A stretch of DNA of 64,000 nt, taken from Alphaproteobacteria bacterium. GTDB taxonomy: Bacteria > Pseudomonadota > Alphaproteobacteria > MPNO01 > UBA830. A program made the translations under genes and the position numbers. Below the pieces are notes generated by a model. That model did not search any database. It was given only the letters and a program-made list of their open reading frames with translations, and was not told the DNA's origin. The stretch is taken from contig OZ219791.1 in NCBI GenBank assembly GCA_964291215.2, positions 1,920,001 through 1,984,000 of the forward strand, given 5' to 3'. Of this stretch, positions 1 to 30,506 are shown piece by piece; the first letter of the stretch is position 1, and each line of letters starts with the position of its first letter.

Positions 1-245
1 CGGTGACTTCGGCGCCGGCAGGACGATCTCCGGGCGCCCAGCGCCCTCAGGCAGCCGGCAAGCTGCAGACGGCCGCGCGCGTCGACAAAGGCAAACTCCT
101 CGCAGACGACCCAGAGCCGACCGGCTGTCGAACTGCTCACAGGACAGCAGCGACGCAATCCGCGCAACTGCTGCCTCGTCCCGCAATGTGCGGCTGATCT
201 GTGACATGGGACACTTATGCCACGCTGAAACACCGTTGTCCAGCT
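1..245 (-). mobile_element. 5' part of a second copy of the DUF4338-IS4 element, cut by the window edge and by IS66 copy 1
   Basis: Near-identical to about 9732-9984; the match ends at GTTGTCCAGCT, where the IS66 end GTATCTACTCACCCC begins. Confidence 0.85.
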
Positions 246-1846
246 GTATCTACTCACCCCTTGTTGGGTTCTGATTCATAGTGCTCGTTGATGATGTCTG
301 CGGCTTTTCCGTCGAGGGCGATCTGGGTGGCGACGAGTGGGTTGTAGCCGAGTGCGGCCATGGAGGTGAGGTAGCTTGAGCCCCGGCACCATGCTTTTGC
401 GTGGAGCATGGTGCGGAAGCAACCGGACACCTTGACCTTTGCCATCCTGATCTTCTGTTCTCCGGCATTGTTGGTGAAGCTGACGTTGGGGTCGTCTGTG
501 AAGCGCAGGTTTTCGTGTTTCACGAGACGTTCGTGCAGGTTGTGCGCGTCGGACTTGCGTCCACGTTTTCCTTTCGTCGGGATGTCGGGCAGTTCCCTGG
601 CGCCCTGATGGTGCGGTAGCGCTTGCGCACGGCCCGGCGTCGTTCAGGGTCTTGGATGCGCTCTTGTTGACCTTGTGGCAGACCTCGCGGAGCAGGCTCT
701 TCATCAGTCGCGCTCAGCGGTAGCTTCGACGACAAAGGTCAGTTCGCGCAGCAGGTAGCTACCGCACAGCTGGTGGCTACACTGGCCCATGTACGAGGCC
801 CAGGACGCCCTTGTAGCACGGGCCGATCTCTTGCCTCCCGGCCGCGTTTGCGGTGCGGGAACTTGCACGTCAGGGTTCCACGACATGGAGCCACTTGCTG
901 TTGATCCGAAATCGTCGACATCGGGCGTTGCAGGAGGTGCGCCACGGCGGCCTCCTCCCATGACGCATCGTGAAAGCATAGCCGAGGCCTCGAAGAGCTT
1001 GATGCCGGAGATTGCCTGCACGAGCGCGACGGCGCAGGGACAGCATCTGGGCAACCAGCAGGTTGATGACGAGGGCCTGGATGCCGATGCCGTACTGCAC
1101 GGGATGTTTTCGGGGAACCGGCCCCGGGCCTTGCACTTCGGGCATTCCTCGGCGTTGACGCGGCGCTCGACGACCTCGAACACGATGTCGTGCGGCGCTC
1201 CCGATCGACGGGGCCGTCGATGTCGGCGCCGCAGGCGTCGCAGGCCGCGACCGTCTCCTCGACGATGATCTTGCGCAGGTTGTCGCCCATCTGCCGGTTC
1301 GGCTTCGGGCCGTTGCTCCCGGCACGCTCTCGTCCTTGTCCGTCTGTGACGGCGGCAGACCGGAGTTCCGGCTCGTGCGTGGTCTTCTCCAGAAGGACGA
1401 CGATGAGGATGACGAGCAGGATGACGAGGACGCGGATCACGGCATCTTCCGCCACCTTGCCGGCAGCGCCGCGGTCTTGGCCGCTTCGAACTCCTCGCGC
1501 GCCGCGTTGACCGTCGCCATCACCCGGCCTCGACGGTCATGATCGTTGCGAGCATCGCCTGGCGCTCGCTCGGCGGCATCTTCCGGTACTCCGCCGCCCG
1601 GCCTCGCGCTTCATCAGCGCGCCGCTTCCGAGATGCGTTTCCACATACAGATCATGCGGGGGCTGGAGCCCCGGAAGCAGCTGGCACAGCCCGCTCGTCG
1701 CCTTCGATCCAAAGTAGCCCACTGGCGGTCCCCGTCGTTCTCGATAACCACCACTAAACGAATCGGCCTGCAGTGTCAAATCTCCATGAAAACCCGTTCG
1801 TTACTCTACCCCGACATCAAGCCGGAACCAGGGGGTGAGCAGTTAC
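246..1846 (-). mobile_element. IS66-family element (single-transposase, ISBst12-like) copy 1, degenerate, with methyltransferase remnant
   Basis: Terminal inverted repeats GTATCTACTCACCCC / GTAACTGCTCACCCC. Frameshifted transposase fragments FTNNAGEQKIRMAKVKVSGCFRT, LCGSYLLREL, ACDACG, ECPKC. Flanks differ (GTCCAGCT vs CATGGAGG). Confidence 0.9.
1520..1722 (-). pseudogene. Internally deleted Dam-like DNA adenine methyltransferase passenger gene (also 3139-3341, 5398-5550, 18007-18135)
   Basis: N-terminus (M)GYFGSKATSGLCQ..QPPHDLYVETHLGSGALMKR resembles Dam/D12-class motifs X-I. It is joined directly to a C-terminal YRKMPP.ERQAMLATIMTVEAG*; no DPPY core remains. Its stop overlaps the transposase ATG. 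Confidence 0.7.
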
Positions 1847-1854
1847 CATGGAGG

Positions 1855-3465
1855 GTATCTACTCACCCCTTGTTGGGTTCTGATTGGCCATAGTGCTCGT
1901 TGATGATGTCTGCGGCTTTTCCGTCGAGGGCCATCTGGGTGGCGACGAGTGGGTTGTAGCCGAGTGCGGCCATGGAGGTGAGGTAGCTTGAGCCCCGGCA
2001 CCATGCTTTTGCGTGGAGCATGGTGCGGAAGCATCCGGACACCTTGACCTTTGCCATCCTGATTTTCTGTTCTCCGGCATTGTTGGTGAAGCTGACGTTG
2101 GGGTCGTCTGTGAAGCGCAGGACTGACTTTTCGTGTTTCACGAGACGTTCGTGCAGGTTGTGCGCGTCGGACTTGCGTCCACGTTTTCCTTTCGGCGTCG
2201 GGATATCGGGCAGTTCCCTGGCACCCTGATGGTGCGGTAGCGCTTGCGCACGGCCCGGCGTCGTTCAGGGTCTTGGATGCGCTCTTGTTGACCTTGTGGC
2301 AGACCTCGCGGAGCAGGCTCTTCATCAGTCGCGCGGTAGCCTCGACGACAAAGGTCAGTTCGCGCAGCAGGTGGCTGCCGCACAGCTGGTGGCTACACTG
2401 GCCCATGTACGAGGCTCAGGACGCCCTTGTAGCACGGGCCGATCTCTTGCCTCCCGGCCGCGCTTGCGGTGCGGGAACTTGCACGTCAGGGTCCCACGAC
2501 ATGGAGCCACTTACTGTTGATCCGAAATCGTCGACATCGGGCGTTGCAGGAGGTGCGCCACGGCAGCCTCCTCCCATGACGCATCGTGAAAGCATAGCCG
2601 AGGCCTCGGAGAGCTTGATGCCGGAGATCGCCTGCACGAACGCGACGGCACGGCGCAGGGACAGCATCTGGCGACCAGCAGGTTGATGACGAGGGCCTGG
2701 ATGCCGATGCCGTACTGCACGGGATGTTGTCGGGGAACCGGCCCCGGGCCTTGCACTTCGGGCATTCCTTGATCTCGGCGCGGCGCTCGACGACCTCGAA
2801 CACGATGTCGTGCGGCGCTCCCGATCGACGGGGCCGTCGATGTCGGTGCCGCAGGCGTCGCAGGCCGCGACCGTTTCCTCGACGATGGTCTTGCGCAGGT
2901 TGTCGCCCATCTGCCGGTTCGGCTTCGGGCCGTTGCTCCCGGCACGCTCTTGTCCGTCTGTGACGGCGGCAGACCGGAGTTCCGGCTCGTTTTGCGCGTG
3001 GTCTTCTCCAGAAGGACGACGATGAGGATGTCGAGCAGGATGACGAGGACGCGGATGACGGCCTCTTCCGCCACCTTGCCGGCAGCGCCGCGGTCTTGGC
3101 CGCTTCGAACTCCTCGCGCGCCGCGTTGACCGTCGCCATCACCCGGCCTCGACGGTCATGATCGTTGCGAGCATCGCCTAGCGCTCGCTCGGCGGCCTCT
3201 TCCGGTACTCCGCCGCCCGGCCTTGCGCTTCATCAGCGCGCCGCCTCCCGGATGCGTTTCCACATACAGATCATGCGGAGGCTGGAGCCCCGGAAGCAGC
3301 TGGCACAGCCCGCTCGTCGCCTTCGATCCAAAGTAGCCCACTGGCGGTCCTCGTCGTTCTCGATTACCACCACTAAATGAATCGGCCTGCAATGTCAAAT
3401 TTCCACGTAAACCCGTTCGTTACTCTACCCCGACATCAAGCCGGAACCAAGGGGTGAGCAGTTAC
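1855..3465 (-). mobile_element. IS66-family element copy 2, degenerate
   Basis: Same terminal repeats; perfect 8-bp duplication CATGGAGG at 1847-1854 and 3466-3473. Confidence 0.92.
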
Positions 3466-4603
3466 CATGGAGGAAGCGAATGGAGCTGCGACACACTACG
3501 ACGATTGAGGCCGTTTTGGAACATCTGATCGCAAACGGAGCAACGGATCTGGGACGGGTCTTTGGCCAGCTCTTCGAGCTTGCGATGCAAATCGAGCGCG
3601 AACAGTACTTGAAAGCGGGCCACCGGAGCGACAGGGCTATGCCAACGGCTACAAGCGGATCGACACCCCCACTGTTGCCGTTCAGGTGCCAAAGACGGCC
3701 GGTCACGGGGACGATCCGTTCTATCCCCAGTCGCTTGAACGCGGCCAGCGATCTTCTCGCGCCGTCATGCTGGCCGTAGCCGAGATGTACATCAAGGGTG
3801 TTTCCACGCGGCAGGATGTAATGCGCGAGTTCGGGAGCCTGTCCTCTTCTCAGGTCAGCCGGGCTACTAGGTTGCTCGACGAAGAACTCGCCGCGCAACC
3901 GGCCCCTTGGGCTGATGAAATACCTGATCCTGGATGCGCACTACGAAAAAGCCCGCCATGACGGCGTTGTGCGCGATGTCGCAGTGCTCTCGGCCATCGG
4001 AATAGGGGCTGCAGGCACGTTCTGGGGCTCTCTGTGGCGCTCTCCGAGGCCGAGGTCCATTGGAGAGCCTTCCTGGAAAGCTTGCTAGCCCTGCATGGTA
4101 CGACCTTCATCGTCTCGGATGCCGGGCTGAAAGCGGCACGACGCGCGGTGCTGGGCGCGGCGATGTGGCAGCGCTGCCAGTTCCACTTGGCACAAAACGC
4201 CGTGCAGCACGCACCGAACAACGACATCAGGAAACGTATTGGAAAACAGCTCGGAGCCATGCGTCCTCACTCCAAACCGCCGAGGCTGAACTGGGCGCCC
4301 TCGTGGCCAGCTATCGCGACAAGCATCCAGGCTTCCTGGCTGGAAAACAATGCGGGGCTCGCTGTCTTCACCTTGCCCGATGCTCACCGCAAGCGCATGC
4401 GAACCTCGAACGGCATCGAGCGACCGATCCAGCAAGAGCTCAAGCGGCGCACCTCCAAAGTCAGGGTCTTTCCGAACCTCGCCTCGTTGGAGCGCCTCTC
4501 AACCGTGGTCCTCATCGACGAAAAATGGGAAACCGAAACCAAGATCAAATGGGAACAGCTCGATCAGCTTCACGACAATTTCCAGACATCAGGTTGCGTA
4601 ATC
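3466..4603 (+). mobile_element. IS256-family element copy A, degenerate, left end missing
   Basis: Fragments EMYIKGVSTR, WQRCQFHL and RMRTSNGIERPIQQELKRRT in shifting frames; right end ...TTTCCAGACATCAGGTTGCGTAATC. Confidence 0.9.
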
Positions 4604-5273
4604 GGCGGCCATGAAGCCAAACCGCCAGGTTACGGCTCACCAGTCCGGGGCGTGCTTGAGATACGACCGAGACGAAGGCTCATTCCGGCCAGTCTCGAGA
4701 GCTCGTGCATGAGGCCGAAGAACATCCCGATCAGGACGCTGACATCAGGTAGGGAAAAACTGCGGGATCGAGTAATTCTTCGAAACCGTGTCCCCGACGG
4801 TGAAGATATCGACCATCGCGGGATCGCAGATCCCTTTCCGCTGCTATCCAGGGACAAGCGGCCCTGTGGCGGCAGCGAGGCTGCAGCAGTGCCCGGATGT
4901 CTCTTGGCCCCCGGATCGGTGTGCAATGACTGCGCGGGATGTGATCGGAGGAGTGCGTGACGGGATCACCCGTCTTATCGACATCAAAGTCGGGATCAGG
5001 ATCGCGCTCGCCGGCCGGCGTAAAGACGCGACCCCGCAGCGCGTCGTTCCCGCGCTCCCGTCACGCCTCCGCAATCACCCGCCAGATCGGCTGCGCCCGT
5101 CCCATATCTCGAGTTTGCGTCGGCTCGCGGCCGCCCAAAGGATCATTTTGTTGCGGTCAGGGCTGTGGGTCCCGGAAGCGGCCTTTTCGAGGCGTTTCGA
5201 GCTCGTCAAGATTACGCAACCTGATGTCTGGAAATTGTCGTGAAGCTCTCAGTCATTGAGCTGTTCCCATTTG

Positions 5274-6882
5274 GTAACTGCTCACCCCCTGGTTCCGGCT
5301 TGATGTCGGGGTAGAGCAACGAACGGGTTTTCGTGGAGATTTGACACTGCAGGCCGATTCGTTTAGTGGTGGTTATCGAGAACGACGGGGACCGGCAGTG
5401 AGCTACTTTGGATCGAAGGCGACGAGCGGGCTGTGCCATCGGAGGCGGCGCGCTGATGAAGCGCAAGGTCGGGCAGCGGAGTACCGGAAGATGCCGCCGG
5501 GCGAGCGCCAGGCGATGCTCGCGACGATCATGACCGTCGAGGCCGGGTGATGGCGACGGTCAACGCGGCGCGCGAGGAGTTCGAAGCGGCCAAGACCGCG
5601 GCGCTGCGTGCGGCCGGCAAGGTGCCGAAAGAGGCCGTGATCCGCGTCTTCGTCATCCTGCTCGACATCCTCATCGTCGTCCTTCTGGAGAAGACCACGC
5701 GCAAAACGAGCCGGAACTCCGGTCTGCCGCCGTCACAGACGGACAAGGACGAGAGCGTGCCGGGAGCAACGGCAAGGGCCCGAAGCCGAACCGGCAGATG
5801 GGCGACAACCTGCGTAAGACCATCGTCGAAGAGACGGTCGCGGTCGATGCCTGCGACGCCTGCGGCGCCGACATCGACGGCCCCGTCGATCGGGAGCGCC
5901 GCACGACATCGTGTTCGAGGTCGTCGAGCGCCGCGCCGAGATCAAGGAATGCCCGAAGTGCAAGGCCCGGTTCCCCGACAACATCCCGTGCAGTACGGCA
6001 TCGGCATCCAAGCCCTCGTCTCCCCCCAACCTGCTGGTCGCCCAGATGCTGTCCCTGCGCCGTGCCGTCGCGTTCGTGCAGGCGATCTCCGGCATCAAGC
6101 TCTCCGAGGCCTCGGCTATGCTTTCACGATGCGTCATGGGAGGAGGCCGCCGTGGCGCACCTCCTGCAACGCCCAACCCTGCATGTCGACGAGACCGGAT
6201 TTCGGATCAACGGCAAGTGGCTTCATGTCGTGGGACCCTGACGTGCAAGTTCCCGCACCGCAAGCGCGGCCGGGAGGCAAGAGATCGGCATCATCCCGTG
6301 CTACAAGGGCGTCCTGACTGCTGGGCCTCGTACATGGGCTATGACCAGTGTAGCCACCAGCTGTGCGGTAGCCACCTACTGCGCGAACTGACCTTTGTCG
6401 TCGAGGCTACCGCGCGACTGATGAAGAGCCTGCTCCCTGCCACAAGATCAACAAGAGCGCATCCAAAACCCTGAACGGGGCCGACCGCCGGGCCGTGCAC
6501 AAGCGCTACCGCACCATCCTCACTCAGGGTGCCAGGGAACTGCCCGACATCCCGACGAAAGGAAAACGTGGACGCATAGCAAACGCGCACAACCTGCACG
6601 AACGTCTCGTGAAACACGAAAACCTGCGCTTCATAGACGACCCCGATGTCAGCTTCACCAACAATGCCGGAGAACAGAAGATCAGGATGGCAAAGGTCAA
6701 GGTGTCCGGATGCTTCCGCTCCACGCAAAAGCATGGTGCCGGGGCTCAAGCTACCTCACCTCCATGGCCGCACTCGGCTACAATCATCACGTCGCCACCC
6801 AGATCGCCCTCGACGGAAAAGCCGCAGACATCATCAACGAGCACCACGACCAATCAGAACCCAACTAGGGGTGAGTAGATAC
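5274..6882 (+). mobile_element. IS66-family element copy 3, degenerate
   Basis: Both terminal repeats present; perfect 8-bp duplication CCCATTTG at 5266-5273 and 6883-6890. Retains LHVDETGFRING and KTSRNSGLPPSQ. Confidence 0.92.
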
Positions 6883-8010
6883 CCCATTTGATGTATGCCT
6901 TGGTTTCGGTTTCCCATTTTTCGTCGATGAGGACCGCGGTTGAGAGGCGCTCCAACGAGGCGAGGTTTGGAAAGACCCTGACTTTGGAGGTGCGCCGCTT
7001 GAGCTCTTGCTGGATCGGTCGCTCGATACCGTTCGAGGTTCGCATGCGCTTGCGGTGAGCATCGGGCAAGGTGAAGACAGCGAGCCCCGCATTGTTTTCC
7101 AGCCAGGAAGCCTGGATGCTTGTCGCGATAGCTGGCCACGAGGGCGCCCAGTTCAGCCTCGGCGGTTTGGAGTGAGGACGCATGGCTCCGAGCTGTTTTC
7201 CAATACGTTTCCTGATGTCATTGTTCGGTGCACGGCGTTTTGTGCCAAGTGGAACTGGCAGTGCTGCCACATCGCCGCGCCCAGCACCGTGCCGCTTTCA
7301 GCCCGGCATCCGAGACGATGAAGGTCGTACCATGCAGGGCTAGCAAGCTTTCCAGGAAGGCTCTCCAATGGACCTCGGCCTCGGAGAGCGCCACAGAGAG
7401 CCCCAGAACGTGCCTGCAGCCCCTATTCCGATGGCCGAGAGCACTGCAACATCGCGCACAACGCCGTCATGGCGGGCTTTTTCGTAGCGCGCATCCAGGA
7501 TCAGGTATTTCATCAGGGGCCGGTTGCGCGGCGAGTTCTTCATCGAGCAACCTGGTGGCCCGGCTGACCTGAGAAGAGGACAGGCTCCCGAACTCGCGCA
7601 TTACATCCTGCCGCGTGGAAACACCCTTGATGTACATCTCGGCTACGGCGCGAGAAGATCGCTGGCCGCGTTCAAGCGACTGGGGATAGAACGGATCGTC
7701 CCCGTGACCGGCCGTCTTTGGCACCTGAACGGTAACAGTGGGGGTGTCGATCCGCTTGTAGCCGTTGGCATAGCCCTGTCGTTCCGGTGTCCGGTGGCCC
7801 GCTTTCAAGTGCTGCTCGCGCTCGATTTGCATCGCAAGCTCGAAGAGCTGACCAAAGATCCGCCCCAGATCCGTTGCTCCGTTTGCGATCAGATGTTCCA
7901 AAACGGCCTCAATCGTCGTAGTGTGTCGCAGGTCCATTCGCTTCCTCCATGAATGTTTTACAACTCCATGGGATAGCACGATGGCGCTGCGTTTCACTGG
8001 GGGGCTAGCC

Positions 8011-10005
8011 CTGCCGTGTCATGACAAATCTGGTTGACAATGGTTTACGTGTTCACGCGTGTCTTTGTCCATCCCGGAACCCGATTTCCCGGCCGATTTG
8101 GTGACCCAGTGCGGCGCTGGTGTGTCTGGCCACATGATCTGGTGACCCGGGCGTGCTGCGGTAGCCGCCGAGATGGGCGACCAGGTGCACCGCATCGGCG
8201 AGACGCTCCGGTTCCTTCAGGGCGTACTTGTGTGCGTAGTCGCGCAGGAAGGCGAGTTCGCTGTCGGTGAACATCAGCTGCGGCTCGCACCTGGCGGCCG
8301 AGCAGGGTCATGACCATGATGCGCGATGACGGCGTTGATCGCCCGCTGCAGGCGGTGCGGAACAGCAGGTGTTCCACCCTGCATCCGGATTTGAGCACGT
8401 AATCCTCGATTCGCCAGCGCTGAAGGTAGAAGCCGACGATGTCGGCCGCCTCCTTCGCCAACCCGCACGGTGGTCAGCAGGCACCGGGATCCTCACCCTC
8501 GGGCGCTCCCTGACCCCGTGCAGGGACACCGGCTTCGCGCTGGGGGCGGTGCCCGTCACGGGCAGCGTGACGGACCGCAACTCGCCAGGCGCTTCTGTCG
8601 CGCGAGCCTTCTTCCGGCTGGCTTGCTCCGTCAGTCCCTCGATCTCAATCAGGCCGCCGGCCATGACGGCGAACAGCCTTCCCTCCTTCAGCACCCTGTC
8701 ATGCTTGGCGCGCAGATCGACGCGGGGCAAGCGCGTGTCGAACAGCTCGAAGATGTCGGCTTCCCGACGGAGATGACGCGCGTCTTGCCGCCGGGGTGGC
8801 AGCGCCTTGAACCCCTCGAGCTGCGGCGTGTCTCCTGCGACCGGGGCTTCACCGGACCCAGCACCCCGAGTGGCAGGTCAGTCACCGCCAGGGTCGCGTG
8901 CAGGCTTGAGGCCCCGGTCTGGTTCTCACCTGCAGGCCGTCGCAGCCGGGAGAAGTTCAGGTCCGTGCCGCAAGAACCGTCTTCTGGCCACGGATGCGCC
9001 GGATGCTGCCGGTGCGGCGCAAGAATGTTCGCCGGCGTGATCTCCGATTCGACGGGCGACCATCCGGTAAAACGCATTGATCGCGGTGTTGTCGGCGCTG
9101 GGAGACGCATTGATCTTCTGACCGGCCGCCAGAAGGCCGGCGCTCCAGGCGCGCAGAAAGTCGCTTGTCACCCCCCTCCAAACTCGTTCTGCGCCCAGTC
9201 GTTCAGACCTTCGCCCGGCGAGGGCGCATGATCGACCTCCCCAGCTTCCTGCGCGCTCCAGTTCGGCCACGAAGACCGTCTTCACCGTCTCCCAGTCCTG
9301 CCGGCCTTCGGTCCTGCACAGGAAGTTGGCCGCGCGCAGGCAGGGTAACCTTCATCGGCAAAACTGAGCCATGGTCGAAACGGTCCTCGAAGTCACGCGG
9401 CGCAGGATGCGCACATGGCTGGCTAGATGCGGGCAGAGCACCTGATCAAGAAACGGCTCAGACAGACGATCCGCTGCAGGTGGTTCCGGCGCTGCCCGTC
9501 GTTCCATCCAGCGGTCCCGCGCCGCGCAGCGGCGGCAAACCCCGCCACCCGTGCGCCGAGCCCACGAGATATTGGCAGCCGGCGAAGGTCGTCGCGGGTG
9601 TTCACGCGCAATCAGCGTGACCGCTCGGTCAATACGATCCCCGACCACGATGATCTCGAGATCCCGAATGCGCGCGCCGGAACCTCTGCAGCGATATCAT
9701 CCACCAACAGGCGAGGCCGGCGGTCGATTGTCGGTGACTTCGGCACCGGCAGGACGATCTCCGGGCGCCCTCAGCGCCTTCATGCAGCCGGCAAGCTGCA
9801 GACGGCCGCGCGCGTCGACAAAGGCAAACTCCTCGCAGACGACCCAGAGCCGACCGGCTGTCGAACTGCTCACAGGACAGCAGCGACGCGATCCGCGCAA
9901 CTGCTGCCTCGTCCCGCAATGTGCGGCTGATCTGAGACTGTGACATGGGACACTTATGCCACGCCGAAACACCGTTGTCCAGCTAAAATTTCCGTGACAT
10001 GCGAG
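8011..10005 (-). mobile_element. IS4-family (IS50/Tn5-like) element with N-terminal DUF4338-like region, degenerate
   Basis: YLQRWRIEDY-VLKSGCRVE matches the IS4 YREK motif. GWNDGQRRNHLQRIVCLSRFLIR is DUF4338-like. Ends CTGCCGTGTCATG / CTCGCATGTCACG; direct repeat (G)GGCTAGCC(C) on both sides. Confidence 0.82.
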
Positions 10006-10231
10006 GGCTAGCCCCCCCCCCCCAGTGAAACGCCTCAAAGCGCAAACCTCAGACAAATTTCCAGACATCAAGTTACAGTACCCTCGTCGTCCCAATGGCG
10101 CTTTCGGATCCTGCCGGCACGGGCGAGACCGTTTTTCCGGCTCGCCGGACAACAAAAAGAATCCTGTGTCCACTCGACAATTGAAAGGACTTGGCCGATT
10201 ATCGGCACACCATCTGGCTCAGGAGGCTTAC

Positions 10232-10885
10232 ATGGCTACAACCCTGCGCGAACGCTACGTTCCCAAGAGTGTGAACCCGATGCGGATGGATCGGCCCGGC
10301 ACCGTCACGTCGATGCCGTCGCCGAACCGGATGCACCACCTGCACATCTTTTCCGATGAGAACTACGACGCGATGGTCACGTTCTACCAGCGGCTGTTCA
10401 ACGCCGAGATCGTCGCCGTCAACGAGGAGATGGGGCCGCCGCTGACCTTTCTAACCTATGATGATCACGACCACCGGGTCGTCATCATCAAGAAGCCGGG
10501 CTGGGGCGCCAAGCCCGAAAACAAGGTTGGCGTTTCTCATCTCGCGTTCTGCTATGCGAGCTTGGGCGAGTTGATCTACGTCTACAAGCGGATGAAGGAG
10601 TGGGGCTACCCGCCGCCCCATTGGACCGTGAACCACGGCAATTCGACCTCGTTCTATTACACGGATCCCGACGGCAACGAGGTTGAGACCATGCTCGACA
10701 ACTACTCCACCCTCGATACCCAGACCTACAAGCGCTACTACCAGTTCACCGAGGAGTTCGGGCCCATGAGGGAAGGGAATTTCGACCCCGACAAGATGGT
10801 CGAACTTTACGAGTCGGGCGTACCGGAATCCATTCTTCTGGACCGCGAGGAAGTCCGCCGCATGGTCCGCGAAGGAACCCTCTGA
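10232..10885 (+). CDS. VOC/glyoxalase family protein (extradiol dioxygenase-like)
   Basis: AGGAGG RBS before ATG 10232; motifs MHHLH, DDHDHRV, VSHLAF, VNHGNSTSFYYTDPDGNEVE. Confidence 0.85.
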   Translation: MATTLRERYVPKSVNPMRMDRPGTVTSMPSPNRMHHLHIFSDENYDAMVTFYQRLFNAEIVAVNEEMGPPLTFLTYDDHDHRVVIIKKPGWGAKPENKVGVSHLAFCYASLGELIYVYKRMKEWGYPPPHWTVNHGNSTSFYYTDPDGNEVETMLDNYSTLDTQTYKRYYQFTEEFGPMREGNFDPDKMVELYESGVPESILLDREEVRRMVREGTL

Positions 10886-10886
10886 C

Positions 10887-11681
10887 TCAGGTAATCGAGC
10901 GGGAGGCGTCGGCTTCCGCCGCCAGCGCCTCCTCGCGGACGAGTTGCCAGATACCATCGACTCGATCGAGGAATCCTGTGTCCTTCGACAGTGTATCAAG
11001 ATTGGAGCGGTTGAAGCGGGTCTCGACAATTTGCTTGATCCGACCGGGGCGGGCGGTCATGACCGCGACCCGGTCGGCGAGCAGCACCGCCTCGCGCACA
11101 TCGTGGGTGACGAACACGACGGTCTTGGGCGAACGCCGCCAAATCGACAGCAGCTCCTCCTGCATGATGTGACGGGTCTGCGCGTCGAGCGCACCGAACG
11201 GTTCATCCATCAACAGGACGTCTGGGTCGATCGCGAGCGTGCGCGCGATGGCGACCCGTTGCTTCATGCCGCCCGAAAGCTGAGAGGGAAAGGCGTCCTC
11301 GAAGCCGGTGAGATGCACCAGGTCGATATATTCCTGCGCGATCCGCAGGCGTTCGTCCTTGGCCAAGCGTTGCTTTTCCAGCCCGTAGAGGACGTTGTCG
11401 AGGACCGATTTCCAGGGAAAAAGCGCGAAGTGCTGAAAGACGATGCCCCGGTCTGCCCCGGGCCCGGTGACATCGTTGCCGTTCACCGAGATTCCCCCGT
11501 CCTGCAGCGGCAGGAAGCCGCCCAGCAGGTAGAGCAGGGTGCTCTTGCCGCAGCCGCTCGGGCCGAGAAGCGCCAGGAACTCCCGGTCCCCGATGTCGAG
11601 CGAGATACGATCCAGCGCCAGAACCGGGCGGCCGCGTGCGGGCCGGTACTGGTGGACCACCGAGTCGATAGCTATGCCCAT
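10887..11681 (-). CDS. ABC transporter ATP-binding protein (nitrate/sulfonate/taurine type)
   Basis: Walker A GPSGCGKST, signature LSGGMKQR, LLMDEPFGALD, FVTHD. Confidence 0.95.
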   Translation of the reverse strand: MGIAIDSVVHQYRPARGRPVLALDRISLDIGDREFLALLGPSGCGKSTLLYLLGGFLPLQDGGISVNGNDVTGPGADRGIVFQHFALFPWKSVLDNVLYGLEKQRLAKDERLRIAQEYIDLVHLTGFEDAFPSQLSGGMKQRVAIARTLAIDPDVLLMDEPFGALDAQTRHIMQEELLSIWRRSPKTVVFVTHDVREAVLLADRVAVMTARPGRIKQIVETRFNRSNLDTLSKDTGFLDRVDGIWQLVREEALAAEADASRSIT

Positions 11682-11688
11682 GGCCGGC

Positions 11689-12990
11689 CTACAACTCGAT
11701 CAGGTCCATCGCGTCGGGGGTCAGGATGCGCGGCCCCTCCTCCTCGACGACCACCTGCGGGCCGAATTCGACATAGATCCTGTCGTCCTTGGCTGCCTTC
11801 ACCTCGACCGCAACCGCCATGCCCGCCTGCACCGCGAGTTCGCCGGGCGGCTTGCGGTCGACGGCGAACGCGGCGAACTCTTCCAGGTCGGACACCGACC
11901 GGTTGGTCATCGGCCTCCGCCACGGCGCATCCTGTGGCACGTCGCCGCGCACCAGCGCGGTTGCCGGGCCCTCGATGCCGTCGATCCCGACGCAGTGGAG
12001 TTGCGGGATCTCGTGGTAGTAGCCCCGGGAGACGATCGGCCTGTCGACCTCGGCGTCGAGCTCCGACCACGGCGTGCCGGGCTTGAGCAGCGCCATCGCG
12101 CGGTCGGTTGCCTCGCGCACGGCCTCGCGCATCGGCTTGTACTCGTCTTCCAGCGGGCCCAGAGAAATCGCGATATGCGGATGGCTCCAGTAGCCGCCGA
12201 AGCGCGTGTAGTGGCCAACATGCACGACATCGCCGGTGCGCATGATCCGGTCCGTCATCCGCCGGTTGACTGGATAGCCTTCGTTTCCTGAGCACAGGAT
12301 GGTGAAGTGGTCGCGTCCGACCTCGTTGCCGGCCTTGAGCGAAGCGTACATGACCTCCGCGATCAGCTCCGACTCCCGGATGCCGGGCCTCGCATGCGCC
12401 ATGACCGCGTCGATCTCGACATTGGCGATCTCGGACGCCTTCTCGATGAAGGCGATCTCCTCGGAACTCTTGATCATGCGCAGCCGCATGATCAGATCCG
12501 AGGCATCCTTGAACGTCGCATCGGGGAGAAACGACTCGAGCGCCCGGTAGCTCATATACGGAATAGAGCCCTCCGGGTTGAGGCCTCCGCCGACTAGGCC
12601 GACGACGCCGATGATTCCGCTGCCATAGCCGAGTTCGGCGATCGTCTCGGCCGCCACCGGCGTCGTGTTGCCATGGGTTGCACGGAACTCGACACCCTCC
12701 CAGCCGTTCTCCAAGTACCACTTGCCCCAGTTGTCGAGCAGCCACAACAGGACCGGGTTGCCCTTGCGCGGAAAGATCAGGTGACGCTCGATATGGTCGT
12801 TGTTGTCGAGCCAGCGGCAATTGCCGACCTCGTTCCACCCCTTGCCGACGACGAACAGGCAGTCGATGCCGCACTCTTCCATCGCTTGGCGGGCGGCCTT
12901 CCAGCGGCGGTCGCGCTCGGCCAGGGTGAACGCGTTGTGCGGGTTGGCGGTGCGGCCTTCGCGGGGGATGAATCGCGGATCGGCTACCAT
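11689..12990 (-). CDS. M24 family (Xaa-Pro peptidase/creatinase-like) hydrolase
   Basis: Creatinase-like N-terminus; LRMIKSSEEI, GDVVH..GGYWS, LHCVGID, VAVEV. Confidence 0.85.
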   Translation of the reverse strand: MVADPRFIPREGRTANPHNAFTLAERDRRWKAARQAMEECGIDCLFVVGKGWNEVGNCRWLDNNDHIERHLIFPRKGNPVLLWLLDNWGKWYLENGWEGVEFRATHGNTTPVAAETIAELGYGSGIIGVVGLVGGGLNPEGSIPYMSYRALESFLPDATFKDASDLIMRLRMIKSSEEIAFIEKASEIANVEIDAVMAHARPGIRESELIAEVMYASLKAGNEVGRDHFTILCSGNEGYPVNRRMTDRIMRTGDVVHVGHYTRFGGYWSHPHIAISLGPLEDEYKPMREAVREATDRAMALLKPGTPWSELDAEVDRPIVSRGYYHEIPQLHCVGIDGIEGPATALVRGDVPQDAPWRRPMTNRSVSDLEEFAAFAVDRKPPGELAVQAGMAVAVEVKAAKDDRIYVEFGPQVVVEEEGPRILTPDAMDLIEL

Positions 12991-13985
12991 TGCCAGCCGC
13001 CTTTCTTTGGTAATTCCTGAACGACGCGGTTGCGCATGACGCCGACCCCCTCGACCTCGGACTCGATCACGTCGCCGTCTTCGAGGAACCAGGACGGCTC
13101 GTCCTTGCGCCCCATGGCAACTCCCTCAGGGGTTCCGGTGGTGATCAGGTCGCCCGGCTCCAGCGTCATCTGCGACAGGAACGCGATTAGTTTCGGGATC
13201 GGCCAGATCATCCGCTCGGTGCGGCTGTCCTGGCGGGTCTCGCCGTTGATCCGGGTGCGGATCGCAAGATCCATCGGATCGGCGATCTCGTCGCGGGTGA
13301 CGATCCAGGGCCCGGACGGCGCGAAGCAGTCGAACATCTTGCCCAGCATCTGGTTGCCTTCCGCCCGTTCGCGCCGGACCACATCGCGGGCGGAGATGTC
13401 GTTGACAACCGTGTAGCCGGCGATCACGTCATAGGCGCGGTCCTCCGGAACGTCGCGGCAGCGCTTGCCGATCACCAAGGTGAGCTCGGTCTCGTAGTCG
13501 AGCTCGTTGACGACGATCGGCTTGACCACATCGTCGAACGGTCCGATCAGCGACGAGGTCGCCTTTATCCAGGACGACGGGATCGACATGGGCAGACTGG
13601 TTCCGGCCTCGTTGAGATGGGCGAGATAATTGCGCCCGACCGCGATAATCTTCTTCGGCACGGCCGGTGCGCCGAGACGGATCTCGGCCAGCGGCACGAA
13701 GAGCGGTTCTCCGTCGGGGCCGCGGGCGTCCCGCTCCGCTCCGGACAGCCAGTCGGAAGCCGCGGCCAGCGCGTCGCGCCCCGCCTCTCCGATCGCGAGA
13801 TGCTTGGCCCAGTTGCTGGGAAAGCGCAGGGCCGCGATCTCGCGGCCCTGCGGGTCGCCCTGTCGTTCAATCAGGAAGGCGGCGTATGCCGCCCGCACAT
13901 CGCCGACCAGATCGTCCACCACAAGGAGACCGGGCCGTCCGGCATCGGGGGATGCGCCTTCGCGCGCATAGGACACCAGCTTCAT
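12984..13985 (-). CDS. Fumarylacetoacetate hydrolase family protein
   Basis: KIIAVGRNY, LDYETEL, NDISARD, GKMFD, PGDLITTGTPEGV; AGGAGG RBS. Confidence 0.93.
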   Translation of the reverse strand: MKLVSYAREGASPDAGRPGLLVVDDLVGDVRAAYAAFLIERQGDPQGREIAALRFPSNWAKHLAIGEAGRDALAAASDWLSGAERDARGPDGEPLFVPLAEIRLGAPAVPKKIIAVGRNYLAHLNEAGTSLPMSIPSSWIKATSSLIGPFDDVVKPIVVNELDYETELTLVIGKRCRDVPEDRAYDVIAGYTVVNDISARDVVRRERAEGNQMLGKMFDCFAPSGPWIVTRDEIADPMDLAIRTRINGETRQDSRTERMIWPIPKLIAFLSQMTLEPGDLITTGTPEGVAMGRKDEPSWFLEDGDVIESEVEGVGVMRNRVVQELPKKGGWQW

Positions 13986-14261
13986 GAACAATCCTCCTTG
14001 ATTTCCTCGCCCGCAATGTGATCATGACGGGCAGCGCAACGCAACGCCGCCCCTTGGTCAGGACTTTCCTGCGCTGCATTCGATCTTGCCGACTGCTGAT
14101 GGAGGGAGGTTGCACAGGCCCAACCCTGCCGGGTTTTCTGGCCTCGGGGCCGTCCACGGGTCGCCACAGCCGGAAAACCCGGCAAGAATACAGAAATTTG
14201 TGCCCCGTTCAGCGGTCATTCAAGACATCAAACACAGCGGGGGAAAGTCTTGGCCCCCTAG

Positions 14262-15466
<1,205 letters not shown>

Positions 15467-15491
<25 letters not shown>

Positions 15492-16321
15492 CTCTCCTCC
15501 TGTCGCGACGCGGTCGGAGCGAGTTGACCAACCGGGCCGGCGTAAGTTAACCGTGGGCGGGTACCACAATCGCTCCTTCCCGAGAGGCGTTTCCCCGGTT
15601 CCGAAGTTCCATTCCGATGGGCTGCGTGGATGGCTGGAACGAGTCCGGGGGCCGGTCGGGACGAGAAAGCACGCAATATTCTGAAACTGCTCTGGCCGCT
15701 CGCAACCCCGGCGAGGTAGCTTCCGCCGCCGCCGCGCGAAACCAAGTCGGCATTCTTTTGGCCCATATCGAATATATTGGCCTCGTGGGGCTTGAGCGCC
15801 CGATCGCAAATGCAATCGGTGACGCAAACGGTGCGGAAGTTGCAACTCATGGAATTGGCTACCGAAGCCCGTACACGACCCGACGTGGTGCATCCCGTCA
15901 CGAGCAAAGCCCCCACCTGCCGGCTCACCAACCATGCGGCGAAGTTGGTGCCGAGGAGGGCCGAAGGCTTGGTCTTGCGGAGAACGTATTCACCACCCGC
16001 GGGCGCCAGCGCATTCACCACTTGACCGGGTTCCGAATGCTCGGTCAGGTTCTTCAGTCCGGGTGCCTTGTCGCAGAACACGCCAGCATCTGAACCGTCA
16101 TCGGCATAAACAACGCGGGTGAACGCGATCGGGATTTTCGCCTTGCGCGCTGACGCCAACAAGGCCGCGGTTGCGGTAATTGGCCCGCCGAGAATCCCGC
16201 CGCCAAACTGATTCGGATCGGCAAAACCGTTGACAAAATCAACGATCAAAAGAGCCAGCCTGTCGCCGAAGCCGCTCGAATTCCCAGAATTTTGTTTCTG
16301 ACAGATGTCCAGTTTCTTCAC
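15467..16321 (-). pseudogene. Isochorismatase-family amidase (maleamate amidohydrolase/N-carbamoylsarcosine amidase-like), probably inactive
   Basis: ALLIVDFVNGF and LRKTKPS are present, but the GxTTSGCVR motif reads GCTTSGRVR. A run-on C-terminus overlaps the thrC start. Confidence 0.7.
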
Positions 16322-16345
16322 CCGGCTTCCAGGGCGCTCCGTGCG

Positions 16346-17269
16346 CTATTCCCAATACCCGGCAAACCGGGTCGCCACACACTGTTCGTAGGAGAACTTG
16401 CCCTTGATCAGCCCCGCGTTTCGCTGGAACTCGGTCATTCCCTCGACGAACTCCGGTGATATGGCGGCTATGTAGTACGGCAAATCACGCTCGACCACCT
16501 GGGCAATCAGATTGGCCTCTTCCTCGGGAAAAAGAACTTTGCCCACATCGGTCGCCAGCCCGACATCGTTCTTGAGGGCCTTGTGAGTCTTGGTCAACGC
16601 ACGCACCGCGGCGGCGCATGCATCCGGGTCGTCGTCGATCATCTTTTGGGACGTAATGAGGGCAGGCATCGTGTAGTTGAAAGCCTTGGGGGGACCATCC
16701 CCCCGCCGGGCATCAATCACCATGGTGCCAACGCCGCGGGTCACCGCTACCTCCGCGCCCATTCCGTTGGCCCAGAAACCATCGATCTTGCCGTCTTCCA
16801 GCGCCTTCGCCGCGGTTACGCCGAAGTTCAGGTTGTTGCCGGTGAATGCGCCGGGGACCGGCGCGATGTTGATCTCGTCACGGACTTCATCGAGTCCGGA
16901 TTCGACGATCAGCTGCTTCAGCCCGAGATCGACCAGAGGCGCGGCACCGATATTCAGCCCCTTGATTGCGTTGATATCGCCTTGCTGCGCGTTCAGGTCG
17001 GTGCGAAGGATTAAGAACCAGTACATGCCTTGTGCCAGAGAAGCGAGCAGCTTGCCTCCTTCCCATTCCGGAAATGCATGCGGCGTCGAGTGCGCGGATC
17101 CGCCGACAAATTGAACTTCGCCGTCACGCAGTACCTCAAGCGTCTTATCCACTGGGAAGATAAGGTCGAGGGACATATCCAGACCTTCTTCCTTGAAAAA
17201 GCCCAACTCTACCGCGGCAGCGGCCGGGAAGTAGGAGTTGGAAATGAGATCGGGAATGGCAATTTTCAT
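16346..17269 (-). CDS. ABC transporter substrate-binding protein (NMT1/SsuA-like)
   Basis: AAVELGFFKEEGLD, ALEDGKIDGFW; no signal peptide visible. Confidence 0.8.
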   Translation of the reverse strand: MKIAIPDLISNSYFPAAAAVELGFFKEEGLDMSLDLIFPVDKTLEVLRDGEVQFVGGSAHSTPHAFPEWEGGKLLASLAQGMYWFLILRTDLNAQQGDINAIKGLNIGAAPLVDLGLKQLIVESGLDEVRDEINIAPVPGAFTGNNLNFGVTAAKALEDGKIDGFWANGMGAEVAVTRGVGTMVIDARRGDGPPKAFNYTMPALITSQKMIDDDPDACAAAVRALTKTHKALKNDVGLATDVGKVLFPEEEANLIAQVVERDLPYYIAAISPEFVEGMTEFQRNAGLIKGKFSYEQCVATRFAGYWE

Positions 17270-17412
17270 TACAGGGCCTCGACTGTGTGGGGACTCTAAT
17301 GTTTACTACGGGAACGAGCCGCCTGACGCAAACATCAGTCGGATAAACACTCAGAGCTTGACCGAAAAGTGAGTGGTCTGCCCAAGTGTGGTCTTCCGGG
17401 TCCAGTTTTGAC

Positions 17413-17645
17413 CTAGAATCTGGAGGTTGCAAATGTCTTGGGCGGAGACCGCTCAGGCGCAGCATATGTGCTCATTCGGCGTTGCGCACACCGAATATGA
17501 GACCGGTATGACGGACGCGGAGTGGGCGCTTGTGGAGAGTTTTCTGCCACCGCCATCGAAAATGGGTCGTCCTCGGAAAACTGATCTTCGTGCGGTGTTC
17601 CACGCGATTCAGTTTCTGCTTGGCACGGGCGCTTGCGGGTCGTGA
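17413..17645 (+). mobile_element. IS5-family transposase 5' remnant
   Basis: YETGMTDAEWALVESFLPPPSKMGRPRKTDLRAVFHAIQFLLGTG; CTAG at 17413. Confidence 0.8.
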
Positions 17646-17882
17646 TGAGGAGCCGGCGGCGGCGGCGTCCACCGGGCCGCGGGCTGGATCCGCGTCGGAA
17701 CAACCAGGGGGTGCGGCCGCTACCACCGACATAACCGGGCCGACAAGCCGAAGAAGGACATCTGGCCCGCTCCGCAAGGGCAGGAAGCGGACCCTCAATC
17801 GCTGAACCCTGCAACCAGCACAGGATGGCGCTTGGCTCCTCCTCCGCAGTGCCGGGACAAAACCGCAACCAATGCGGAAAAC

Positions 17883-20663
17883 GTAACTGCTCACCCCCTG
17901 GTTCCAGCTTGATGTCGGGGTAGAGCAACGAACGGGTTTTCGTGGAGATTTGACACTGCAGGCCGATTCGTTTAGTGGTGGTAATCGAGAACGACGGGGA
18001 CCGCCAGTGGGCTACTTTGGATCGAAGGCGACGAGCGGGCTGTGCCAGCTGCTTTCGGGGCTCCAGCCCCCGCATGATCTGTATGTGGAAACGCATCTCG
18101 GAAGCGGCGCGCTGATGAAGCGCAAGGCCGGGTGATGGCGACGGGCGGCGCGCGAGGAGTTCGAAGCGGCCAAGACCGCGGCGCTGCCGGCAAAGTGGCG
18201 GAAGAGGCCGTCATCCGCGTCCTCGTCATCCTGCTCGACATCATCATCGTCGTCCTTCTGGAGAAGACCACGCACGAGCCGGAACTCCGGTCTGCCGCCG
18301 TCACAGACGGACAAGAGCGTGCCGGGAGCAAGGGCCCGAAGCCGAACCGGCAGATGGGCGACAACCTGCGCAAGATCATCGTCGAGGAGACGGTCGCGGC
18401 CTGCGACGCCTGCGGCGCCGACAATCATCGACGGCCCCATCGATCGGGAGCGCCGCACGACATCGTGTTCGAGGTCGTCGAGCGCCGCGCCGAGATCAAG
18501 GAATGCCCGAAGTGCAAGGCCCGGTTCCCCGACAACATCCCGTGCAGTACGGCATCGGCATCCAGGCCCTCGTTATCAACCTGCTGGTCGCCCAGATGCT
18601 GTCCCTGCGCCGTGCCGTCGCGCTCGTGCAGGCGATCTCCGGCATCAAGCTCTCCGAGGCAACCTGCCTCAGCTATGCTTTCACGATGCGCTCGCGTCAT
18701 GGGAGGAGGCCGCCGTGGCGCACCTCCTGCAACGCCCGATGTCGACGATTTCGGATCAACAGTAAGTGGCTTCATGTCGTGGGACCCTGACGTGCAAGTT
18801 CCCGCACCGCAAGCGCGGGCAAGAGATCGGCCCGTGCTACAAGGGCGTCCTGGGCCTCGTACATGAGCCAGTGTAGCCATCAGTTGTGCGGCAGCCACCT
18901 GCTGCGCGAACTGACCTTTGTCGTCGAGGCTACCGCGCGACTGATGAAGAGCCTGCTCCCTGCCACAAGGTCAACAAGAGCGCATCCAAAACCCTGAACG
19001 AGGCCGGGCGCTACCGCACCATCAGGGCGCCAGGGAACTGCCCGACATCCCGCCGCCGACGAAAGGAAAACATGGACGCATAGCAAACGCGCACAACCTG
19101 CACGAACGTCTCGTGAAACACGAAAACCTGCGCTTCATAGACAACCCCGACGTCAGCTTCACCAACAATGCCGGAGAACAGAAGATCAGGATGGCAAAGG
19201 TCAAGGTGTCCGGATGCTTCCGCTCCACGCAAAAGCATGGTGCCGGGGCTCAAGCTACCTCACCTCCATGGCCGCACTCGGCTACAATCATCACGTCGCA
19301 ACCCAGATCACCCTCGACGGAAAAGCCGCAGACATCATCAACGAGCACTACGACCAATCAGAACCCAACTAGTAGTATGACATTATTGTATTGATGGGCA
19401 TAGTGACTTCAGTTTCGTCCGGGCATCCTTCGTCGTGAAACGCCAGTCGACAGTGACATCGGCCGCATTGCGGCGCTCGACCCACGCCACGGTCTCCCGC
19501 AGCATGGTGTCGCGGTCGGGAATGCGTCGCCGAAGACACTGCCGCGACAGCGCACCGATCTCGATCTCGGCCATGTTGAGCCAGCTCCCGTGCTTGGGCG
19601 TGTAGCGAAACTCGAACCGCTTTCGCACCCGCCTCGCCTCCTCGGGCTCGAAGGCTTCATACAGCGACTGTGCGTGTTCAGATTGTCCAGCACGATCTTC
19701 CTGTCGGGGAAATGGTCGTCGGCAAGCTCCCGGATGAAGTGCGCCCAGTCCCGCGGCGGTCGGTGACTTTCACCGTACGCCAGTTCTCGTTGGGCGCAAA
19801 GGCCATAAAGAGGTTGGCCGTGCCGTTGCGCTCATATTCATAGTCGACCACCTCCGGCTGACCGGAGGACGGGGGATGCGGGTTTCCTTCGTCTGCTGCC
19901 GGCTGGTCTCAGCACCTCGTCCCCGGCAAAGTCCCGCTGATAAGTGTCAAGCACATCCGCCGCCACGAACTGTGCGCTCCGGTGCGGTGGAATGCACCAG
20001 TACTGCTTCAGCCACGGCTTGATCTCTTTTTTTTTAGAGTCTTCCTGACCGTCTCTTCTGAAATGCTCTCGACGATTTCCATCTCCACCAGACGGCCGGC
20101 AAGCAGCTTCAGCGTCCACAGCCCTCGGGCGGGGACGAACAGGCCAGAGCGATCAGCTTCGCCTCCATCGCCCCGTCCAGCCGTTTCGGCCGGCGGTTCA
20201 CCTGCTCCTTGCGGCTGAGGGCGGCCTCCAACCCCTCCAGAACGCAGCGCTTGCGCAAACGCTCGACTGTCGCCGTGCCGATGCCCAGCCCTTGCGCAAT
20301 GTCGGCATCGACAAGCCGAGCGCCCCCTCGTCGGCCAGCATCAGGACCTGTGCCCGGCGCCGACGCCAGGCGGCCCCGGTGCCGTCGACGATCGCCTTCA
20401 GATCCTGGCGCTCCTGCGTTGAAAGGGTAACCCGGTAGAGCTTCCTGCCCCGAGAGTTGGCCATATGCGCCGCTCCTGTCATTGCGCCGAAGACCTGCGG
20501 GTATGCCCGTTGTCCGGACCTGCGCATGGGGCTGCCTGCCTGTTCGGCATCTGCCCGTGTGGATATCGGCACTGTCCAGATTCCAACGAACGCCGACACG
20601 GAAATACTACCCACAAAAAACCATCAATACAATGCCGGTGGACTACTAGGGGTGAGTAGATAC
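17883..20663 (+). mobile_element. IS66-family element copy 4, degenerate, with nested IS630
   Basis: Both terminal repeats present; perfect 8-bp duplication CGGAAAAC at 17875-17882 and 20664-20671. Confidence 0.92.
19372..20646 (-). mobile_element. IS630-family element, degenerate
   Basis: TA duplication (19370-19371, 20647-20648). Terminal repeats GTAGT(N8)ATTGTATTGATGG. Motifs YTPKHGSWLNMAEIEI, VLDNLNTH, KPWLKQYWCIPP; A9 slippery run at 20027-20035. Confidence 0.92.
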
Positions 20664-20907
20664 CGGAAAACATGGCATGGCGCCAGTGCCCGCCAACCTC
20701 ACCGCGCATCCCGGCGCACGAAACCGCTCCGGGTGACGCTGGAACTCCCTGACAAAAGCCCGTCAAACGGATCGAAATAACAACACCTCACCGCACGAAC
20801 GAGTGCTTGCAATAAAGATATCCGAGAGCTCAGAATATCAACCCGTTGTAATACAGAGATTAATTTTCATAACTTGTGTAACTCTGACATTGTCGGGAGA
20901 ATTCGTG

Positions 20908-30409: not shown

Positions 30410-30506
30410 CTGTCGGGGACGGCTTGACCCCGGGACTCGATAAGCTACAGTAATTGCAAATCGGTAGGTTTCCGCCCGATTGGCGGAAATGCGGCCGCGC
30501 AGAAGA

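Follow-up and report, generated by a model that had tools for sequence, protein, structure and literature searches.

The four IS66-family insertion sequences (ISs) located between positions 246 and 20663 of a 64,000-nucleotide (nt) stretch of alphaproteobacterial DNA (contig OZ219791.1 of assembly GCA_964291215.2, positions 1,920,001 to 1,984,000 of the forward strand; hereafter, the window) belong to a family whose copies carry numerous deletions of 5 to 7 nt, and the same lesion affects many other repeats of this genome. Nearly every old repeat copy in the genome (hereafter G000; 6.15 Mb in two contigs, ∼36% of it repeated DNA) is dead through this single class of lesion, and the core genes are intact. 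The deletions are probably made de novo by an excision process that is restricted to repeats and anchored to a short sequence, after which gene conversion and transposition spread them.

For comparison, the analysis used the sister genome G001, which is ∼94% identical to G000 and was aligned with it over 404 kb in 73 blocks, and the congener G002, which is ∼71% identical to G000 at mutS and for which the repeat data consist of 400 kb retrieved around IS66 matches. The repeat sample from a further congener, G004, was small (16 kb aligned), and repeat sequence from G003 and G001 was too scarce for deletion scoring.

Size spectrum and frequency of the deletions

Across 171 repeat fragments of G000, distinct gaps of 1 to 8 nt number 582, 255, 167, 135, 445, 862, 501, and 112, respectively. 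The affected elements include IS66, IS256, IS630-type, IS110-like, and ISAs1-like transposons, as well as non-coding ones. The IS66 element is represented by 164 near-full copies among 257 chains; scored at 65 deletion sites, each copy has from 12 to 45 deletions of 5 to 7 nt (mean, 30.6), and all 164 deletion haplotypes are distinct. These gaps are true deletions: once the segments that some copies keep are put back, the family is again homologous to intact IS66 transposases (55% at the amino acid level to protein P0010), and pooling the retained segments of the IS256 family likewise gives a 424-codon frame.

In the seven G000 families with at least 29 copies each, 168 of the 278 deletions of 5 to 7 nt are present in more than half of the copies, and 15 are singletons. 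This frequency is reached by 2 of the 42 deletions of 1 nt, none of the 10 deletions of 2 to 4 nt, and 4 of the 20 deletions of 8 to 20 nt (12 of which are singletons); the three insertions of 5 to 7 nt are all singletons. Expressed as load per kb per copy, the deletions of 5 to 7 nt amount to 15.7, compared to 0.31 for 1 nt, 0.10 for 2 to 4 nt, 0.42 for 8 to 20 nt, and 0.01 for the insertions of 5 to 7 nt; the load of single-nucleotide polymorphisms (SNPs) in the elements is 14 to 36 per kb. Segments missing from all copies are uncountable in this scheme, and majority deletions of 1 to 2 nt would score as rare insertions, with non-singleton 1-nt cases numbering 10 at most. An earlier note on this DNA, made from the window sequence, had proposed that deletions spread through the entire IS family. 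Deletion alleles do reach far higher copy frequencies than point mutations or other indels, and the outcome is, as that note supposed, a family-wide inactivation resembling fungal repeat-induced point mutation (RIP). Inactivation as such does not spread, because each of the seven in-frame stops found in the IS66 family occurs in a single copy.

The number of 5- to 7-nt gaps per SNP increases with copy number (rho = 0.61 across 141 fragments with 1 to 12% divergence). The variance of deletion load among copies is 40, compared to 7.5 under independence, and the loads of neighboring elements from different families correlate (r = 0.35 within 4 kb, n = 159), an effect that fades by 10 kb. Together, these two observations suggest local bursts, to which the shared age of neighbors could contribute. 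Three copies at one shared insertion site differ by 10 to 14 deletions. In a young 2-kb element, designated family 43, 11 of the 14 copies combine 13 to 24 deletions with 2 to 8 SNPs; the family has 30 deletion sites versus 56 SNPs and lacks any relative within 16%.

Single-copy DNA and low-copy-number elements

The intergenic single-copy DNA compared between G000 and G001 (62.6 kb with 6,118 SNPs, partly under constraint) contains 33 gaps of 5 to 7 nt in G000 and 7 in G001, along with 93 and 69 gaps, respectively, of 1 nt. The resulting 5- to 7-nt rate of ∼0.5 per kb corresponds to ∼0.01 per lineage SNP, whereas the elements have approximately one such gap per SNP. As an internal control, the ratio of 1-nt to 5- to 7-nt gaps is 3:1 in single-copy intergenic DNA versus 1:50 in the elements. 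Deletions anchored to the motif described below occur at 10 to 20 per kb in repeats, whereas those in single-copy intergenic DNA lack the anchor (3 of 21, versus 3.9 expected). Elements common to both genomes follow the same trend: most of those present in 2 to 5 copies in G000 have 0 to 1.4 deletions per kb there (one has 6.0), and those present in 9 to 11 copies have 13 to 16 per kb. The G001 copies of the shared elements have 0 to 0.3. A mild G000 excess of missing 5- to 9-nt segments, without the anchor motif, is seen even in single-copy DNA, such as the in-frame 6-mers missing from 16 places in G000 and 1 in G001 (loci L161 to L200).

Anchored deletion ends

Anchoring the comparison at deletion borders exposed a motif; an earlier unanchored k-mer search gave weak motifs only. 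In G002, 55% of the sites show no microhomology, which is the chance level, and of the 168 zero-microhomology sites, 106 have AT, on one strand, as the last two bases of the deleted piece (14.5 expected). At the corresponding sites of G000, the deleted piece ends in AC or AT in 45 of 106 cases (17 expected) and in GAC or GAT in 26 (7.3 expected). The trinucleotide CCA is mildly enriched around the G000 deletions but is not the anchor. The anchor is used on both strands. Sites of a family left out of training are ranked by a matrix built from the other families with areas under the curve of 0.85 and 0.88.

The same deletion sites recur in subfamilies that have diverged by up to ∼20%. In two G002 families, 41 of 73 and 25 of 66 sites are hit in at least two subfamilies, and the state of the anchor is associated with deletion (odds ratios of 2.7 and 6.2). 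Moreover, a single anchor can serve several lengths, as in the case of a GAC anchor at which 99 copies lack 6 nt and 38 lack 8 nt, or an IS256 anchor with 5, 7, and 8 nt missing in 8, 8, and 11 copies, respectively. Length and anchor vary by congener: 5 to 6 nt and AT in G002, 5 to 7 nt and GAT or GAC in G000, and 7 nt and GAC in the small sample from G004. The earlier note had held that its interpretation would fail if every shared deletion lay at a hotspot of slippage that recurs independently. Independent recurrence at hotspots was found in part, in the form of deletions without SNPs in very young G002 copies, motif-anchored ends, and several lengths per anchor, but slippage does not explain most of these hotspots.

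Deletions gained without substitutions

Near the IS66 matches in G002, gaps of 5, 6, and 7 nt number 216, 277, and 50, respectively, versus 93 of 1 nt, and intact and deleted copies are found side by side. In one young G002 family, six copies that differ by 0 or 1 SNP carry 0, 0, 1, 6, 14, and 14 deletions, not counting a poly-C tract. Six of its 14 deletion sites have no carriers among 16 to 22 older relatives, and at four of these six the two nearest old copies have no GAT. The remaining eight sites are common to relatives that are 14 to 21% diverged, and no SNP was transferred with them. These counts come from the 30 of 45 matches to this family that were retrieved. In G004, six 7-nt gaps were found, five with GAC at the border, which probably represent only 3 or 4 independent sites. 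The pattern is solid in two genomes (G000 and G002) and hinted at in a third. G000 and the retrieved G002 DNA have no elements of one family in common at ≥72% identity, which precludes a cross-genome comparison of sites. A sponge metagenome run contains a relative that is ∼95% alike.

Gene conversion among copies

The earlier note drew attention to three sites, A, B, and C, at which the four window copies share short deletions in all three possible pairings, and alignment of the four copies reproduces all of these pairings. Site A is retained on the minus strand in copies 1 (positions 401 to 418, where the 7-mer deleted elsewhere ends in CAT, conforming to the anchored pattern) and 2 (position 2013) and is deleted in copies 3 and 4 (positions 6714 and 19218). 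Site B is retained at positions 1325 and 5743 (5743 to 5757, plus strand; 6 nt) and deleted at 2945 and 18311, and site C is retained at 2986 and 5694 (5694 to 5710, plus strand; 5 nt, no microhomology) and deleted at 1372 and 18267. The segments described as private to single copies, GTCAGT in copy 2, the LHVDETG codons in copy 3, and GCAACCTGCC in copy 4, were verified in the same alignment. The pattern is thus real, but these are only 4 of at least 164 copies, and IS66 is not the sole family affected. Genome-wide, the deleted state is found in 148 of 164 copies at site A, 128 of 163 at site B, and 147 of 163 at site C, and all eight A/B/C haplotypes are present among 163 copies.

The IS66 copies are, as the earlier note argued, non-clonal mosaics: all four gametes are seen for 98% of the 528 pairs of common SNPs and for 97% of the 630 pairs of deletions, with r2 mostly 0.01 to 0.07 beyond 25 bp. 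Perfect 8-bp target duplications are retained in 102 of the 147 copies in which they were scored (17 were unscored), which, along with the four-gamete test and the decay of linkage, supports conversion between paralogues. Some subfamily structure nevertheless persists. Homologues polarize the SNPs only in part: of 90 variants at conserved codons, 16 are fixed or near-fixed differences, beyond the reach of an outgroup that is 55% identical.

Conversion among copies is therefore real. What remained of the earlier proposal was that its bias, through preferential removal of heteroduplex loops, created the pattern. According to this explanation, background deletions would give rise to 5- to 7-nt heteroduplex loops that are excised, each deletion would sweep its family, and the motif would reflect the preference of the loop-cutting step. 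Several observations speak for it. The deletion frequency spectrum is J-shaped, which fits either drive or recurrence, and strong directional drive improves the log likelihood by 189 over neutrality. The ratio of singleton deletions to singleton SNPs (15:891) is close to that in single-copy DNA (∼33 per 3,000 lineage SNPs), where G000 lacks 5- to 7-nt segments more often than G001 in both intergenic DNA and in-frame 6-mers. Flank identity predicts deletion sharing between subfamilies (z = 5.4) independently of the motif score (z = 5.6), and copies with many deletions deviate less from the consensus of SNPs (rho = −0.17). There is also a eukaryotic precedent (PMC3280953). However, at ∼0.01 deletion per SNP, a G002 family with 0 or 1 SNP cannot hold 14 deletions, six of them with no known donor, and the same argument applies to family 43. 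Further, deletions common with relatives that are 14 to 21% diverged arrive without the neighboring SNPs, several lengths occur at one anchor, and the deletions of 8 to 20 nt, which simple loop removal should drive as well, are not driven. Conversion alone is accordingly an unlikely cause of the pattern, although conversion may possibly be biased toward deletions as well.

Weighing repeat-restricted excision

A number of observations weigh against anchored excision as the source of the deletions. Anchored and unanchored sites exceed 50% frequency at similar rates (73 of 107 versus 62 of 107, P = 0.16), and singleton deletion rates in old families equal the background; both favor a role for biased conversion. 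Singleton deletions of 5 to 7 nt are scarce in old families (the 15 cited above), from which it follows that new sites arise slowly there. In the 15 families with at least 12 copies, copy number does not predict the load per SNP (rho = 0.26, P = 0.35). Element ends, which include the most repeated part of the IS66 family, are the least deleted, with 0.7 to 3.7 deletions per kb in the first 100 bp versus 18 to 19 inside, even though anchors are no scarcer there. A young G000 IS66 family (15 pieces with 0 to 9 SNPs that are already mosaic) has no deletions of 5 to 7 nt, and eight identical G002 copies are intact. Donors for the deletions of the young G002 family could hide among the 15 of 45 unretrieved matches. 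The G000 anchor is the weaker one, with 61 of the 106 zero-microhomology sites lacking a terminal AC or AT, and microhomology of at least 3 nt is in excess there (122 of 446, versus ∼7% expected); survival of copies with protective changes would blur the anchor. Finally, only 13 of the 32 length pairs that differ on one side share the anchored border, and no effector enzyme was identified among the candidates searched (see below).

A second alternative attributes the deletions to a defense nickase, from a restriction-modification or an Ssp phosphorothioate system, that cuts transposition or retrohoming intermediates or fresh unmodified copies, so that deletions accumulate in trans with each round of copying. 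The nested loads in the young G002 family fit such a stepwise gain along a copying lineage, the spared ends are the parts required in cis, target duplications look young (3 of 105 have one mismatch), and genes for SspABD and for type I, IIG, and IV restriction are present. This explanation is nevertheless improbable. The same signature appears across unrelated chemistries, from IS66 to non-coding elements; the anchor is less specific than a restriction site would be; both strands are hit; and G004 shows the signature without a reverse transcriptase. The correlated loads of neighbors from different families indicate events in place, and copies that share an insertion site differ in their deletions.

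Ordinary decay, which would combine slippage at short repeats with selection that favors dead transposases and with clonal amplification of copies that carry deletions, could account for the excess of microhomology of at least 2 nt in G000 (40% versus 19%) and for the surviving subfamily structure. The size spectrum and the anchor already contradict it, as do the chance level of microhomology in G002 and the singleton status of all in-frame stops, which shows that inactivation itself is not favored. Deletions in bacterial pseudogenes follow a power law with a bias toward multiples of 3 (PMC6054270), rather than peaking at 5 to 7 nt. This explanation thus appears very improbable. An artefact of assembly or polishing in collapsed repeats is hardly credible: the evidence does consist of contigs in which alleles are not phased across the element and both flanks, but there are 164 distinct haplotypes with intact target duplications, deleted and intact alleles both occur at high depth in separately assembled Logan contigs from three runs (of one study, possibly the source, and likewise not phasing alleles to loci), the signature is repeated in G002, and core genes are uninterrupted.

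A possible mechanism and the search for an effector

Repeat-restricted excision could take the form of a host nick-trim-rejoin reaction that acts on a single strand during the recombinational pairing of copies. The cut would fall 3′ of an A-T or A-C step, the 5 to 7 nt upstream of the cut would be removed, and the ends would be ligated without a template. The resulting loop, too large for MutS (up to ∼4 nt), would be expected to persist and be fixed at the next replication, and gene conversion and copying in trans would then spread the deletion. Pairing between copies would serve as the trigger, a step against which the young intact families count. The enzyme would probably be vertically inherited, because length and anchor differ between congeners. 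A more far-reaching proposal, made here tentatively and with somewhat less than even confidence, is that a vertically inherited defense senses multicopy DNA and excises 5 to 7 nt at A-pyrimidine steps, permanently killing expanding transposon families; this would be the first prokaryotic analogue of RIP, working through precise, template-free excision without Ku/LigD.

The genes mutS, mutL, recA, recJ, xseA, and uvrC, which the earlier note had suggested for inspection in part, are all uninterrupted in G000. Genes for Ku and ATP-dependent ligase, the components of Ku/LigD end joining, were not found in G000 or four congeners, and no match to the Piwi domain (PF02171) was found in 25 genomes. 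NucS/EndoMS, endonuclease V, and the Y1 (IS200/IS605) transposase were not found in G000; the deletion anchor resembles the cut site of endonuclease V, at the second bond 3′ of adenine. A D12 methylase had no match over the cutoff in G000. Searches of G000 and of six members of its family did not find ComEC, which three other families of the same order do possess. PADLOC, run on 195 of the 515 atypical genes, revealed Ssp phosphorothioation, several restriction systems, a cyclic-oligonucleotide-based antiphage signaling system (CBASS), Dsr2, and Sir2-HerA but no convincing effector; a short prokaryotic Argonaute was not seen among these 195 proteins. Self-targeting by clustered regularly interspaced short palindromic repeats (CRISPR) was rejected, as none of the 111 spacers matches repeats and five short spacer matches are all in single-copy DNA. 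A cDNA route via reverse transcriptase is disfavored by the use of both strands and by the absence of this enzyme from G004.

Two of the systems encountered in these searches can be described further. Locus L366 (G000:C1:871008-891007) contains sspA, sspB, and sspD adjoining a DndB-like gene. The two CRISPR systems include one with Cas3 and a Cas4-Cas1 fusion (96 repeats) and one with Cas9 (17 repeats), found in loci L214 and L215 (G000:C1:574247-581108 and C2:2068487-2069477).

Comparison with known systems

Fungal RIP introduces C-to-T transitions at a preferred dinucleotide before meiosis, through a methyltransferase homologue of the RID type and recombination-independent pairing. As in RIP, repeated DNA is mutated here with a local sequence preference and in bursts, and whole transposon families are killed; the restriction to repeated DNA was found in G000, with exceptions in young families. 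Unlike in RIP, the lesion is a 5- to 7-nt deletion in a bacterium instead of a C-to-T change, and the SNP load is only the 14 to 36 per kb given above.

Nonallelic conversion in Drosophila and primates has a deletion bias of ∼3.5-fold, which in primates is stronger for long indels (PMC3280953). Both there and here, paralogues share deletions via conversion, deletions outnumber insertions, and shrinkage is cooperative. The difference lies in the narrow 5- to 7-nt class (278 deletion sites versus 3 insertions), in its anchoring to a motif, and in its rate far above the background. Instead of a bias toward long indels and alleles derived from ordinary mutation, the G000 families show mostly rare deletions of 8 to 20 nt and anchored bursts de novo. 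In the Wolbachia strain wBm, dead IS copies share inactivating lesions by conversion (PMC3196728 and PMC3205602, on Cordaux 2009); the accessible parts of these papers describe homogenization, with no size-specific or motif-anchored deletion.

Very short patches are also exchanged in the microindels of Acinetobacter baylyi attributed to short-patch double illegitimate recombination (SPDIR; 10.1101/2024.07.02.601687) and in the UvrC-dependent microimports of Helicobacter pylori (PMC9426483). By analogy, an exchange of this kind could explain the near-absence of linkage at 25 to 50 bp. Both processes, however, copy donor DNA and, as far as the accessible portions of these two sources go, are not reported to make deletions restricted to repeats; the microimports, moreover, follow transformation, whereas ComEC was not found in G000. 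MutS handles loops of up to ∼4 nt, and larger loops are repaired separately (PMC2504288). The MutS limit matches the lower size edge of the deletions. Large-loop repair, on the other hand, acts on up to hundreds of nucleotides and requires a pre-existing deletion, which leaves the upper edge of 7 to 8 nt and the anchor unexplained.

The earlier note knew of no such system in bacteria, and searches of an open-access library found no description of one. That bacteria survive IS explosions and bring them to an end is usually put down to drift, large deletions, and silencing. If a host process makes the deletions, both the mutational signature and the kind of transposon control are new, and the long-standing question of whether prokaryotes recognize repetition itself would become testable. 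The signature, 5 to 7 nt with one anchored end, is sharp enough for screening complete genomes and for phylogenetic profiling down to a gene. If conversion alone is responsible, its bias toward deletions would still be extreme for a bacterium, and the same searches found no description of such a case.

Mobile elements and other genes of the window

IS66 copy 1 (positions 246 to 1846, minus strand) consists of one transposase and the stub of a Dam-like methylase, identified as such from an intact G001 relative (locus L002); 27 of the 65 scored sites are deleted, and its flanks make no target duplication. Copy 2 (1855 to 3465, minus strand; 26 sites deleted) is flanked by the 8-bp target duplication CATGGAGG at 1847 to 1854 and 3466 to 3473. 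Copy 3 (5274 to 6882, plus strand; 19 sites deleted) has the target duplication CCCATTTG and sits within an IS256 copy; a fragment of it gives a weak match to PF03050 (E = 3e-4). Copy 4 (17883 to 20663, plus strand, with the body at 17883 to 19372 and the right end extending to 20663; 31 sites deleted) has the target duplication CGGAAAAC. All four copies show inverted ends starting with GTAA, which, together with an 8-bp target duplication, are features of the IS66 family; the segments retained family-wide align at 55% to PF03050 proteins over ∼480 amino acids. In this subgroup of IS66 elements, a small gene for a Dam-like adenine methylase with the DPPY motif is found upstream of the transposase (L002:2611-3270 in G001 and L003:858-1568 in G004), and the G000 family keeps a mere stub of it. 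A reverse transcriptase element, likely a group II intron, occupies one fixed site in ∼34 of the G000 IS66 copies (position 1371 of window copy 3). G000 has 19 matches to reverse transcriptase, mostly broken (loci L342, L345, L348, and L351).

Copy 4 is interrupted by an IS630-type element (19369 to 20649, minus strand) inserted at CTAG, which itself has eight deletions of 5 to 7 nt; its DDE_3 and helix-turn-helix domains are seen in a sister copy. A heavily deleted IS256-family copy (PF00872) lies at 3466 to 4603 on the minus strand. The second IS256-family copy (5210 to 10082, plus strand) is split into pieces at 5210 to 5273, 6883 to 8010, and 10005 to 10082 by IS66 copy 3 and by a copy of family 43. 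The latter (8002 to 10011), an element with inverted ends and 14 full copies in the genome, has no Pfam match in the scanned fragments; this copy combines 18 deletions of 5 to 9 nt with 3 SNPs, and window positions 1 to 245 are the terminus of a further one. A non-coding element resembling miniature inverted-repeat transposable elements (17680 to 20802, plus strand; pieces at 17680 to 17882 and 20664 to 20802) is split by IS66 copy 4, and its family has 16.6 deletions per kb.

Elsewhere in the window, a gene for a TIR domain protein that matches ThsB (37752 to 38738; PADLOC E = 6e-121) is surrounded by IS copies, and its raised depth in contigs of the sequencing runs suggests that there are extra copies. 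A tandem glycine riboswitch (30503 to 30685) is found upstream of glycine cleavage genes, and the glycine cleavage protein encoded in the window has its best matches in alphaproteobacteria.

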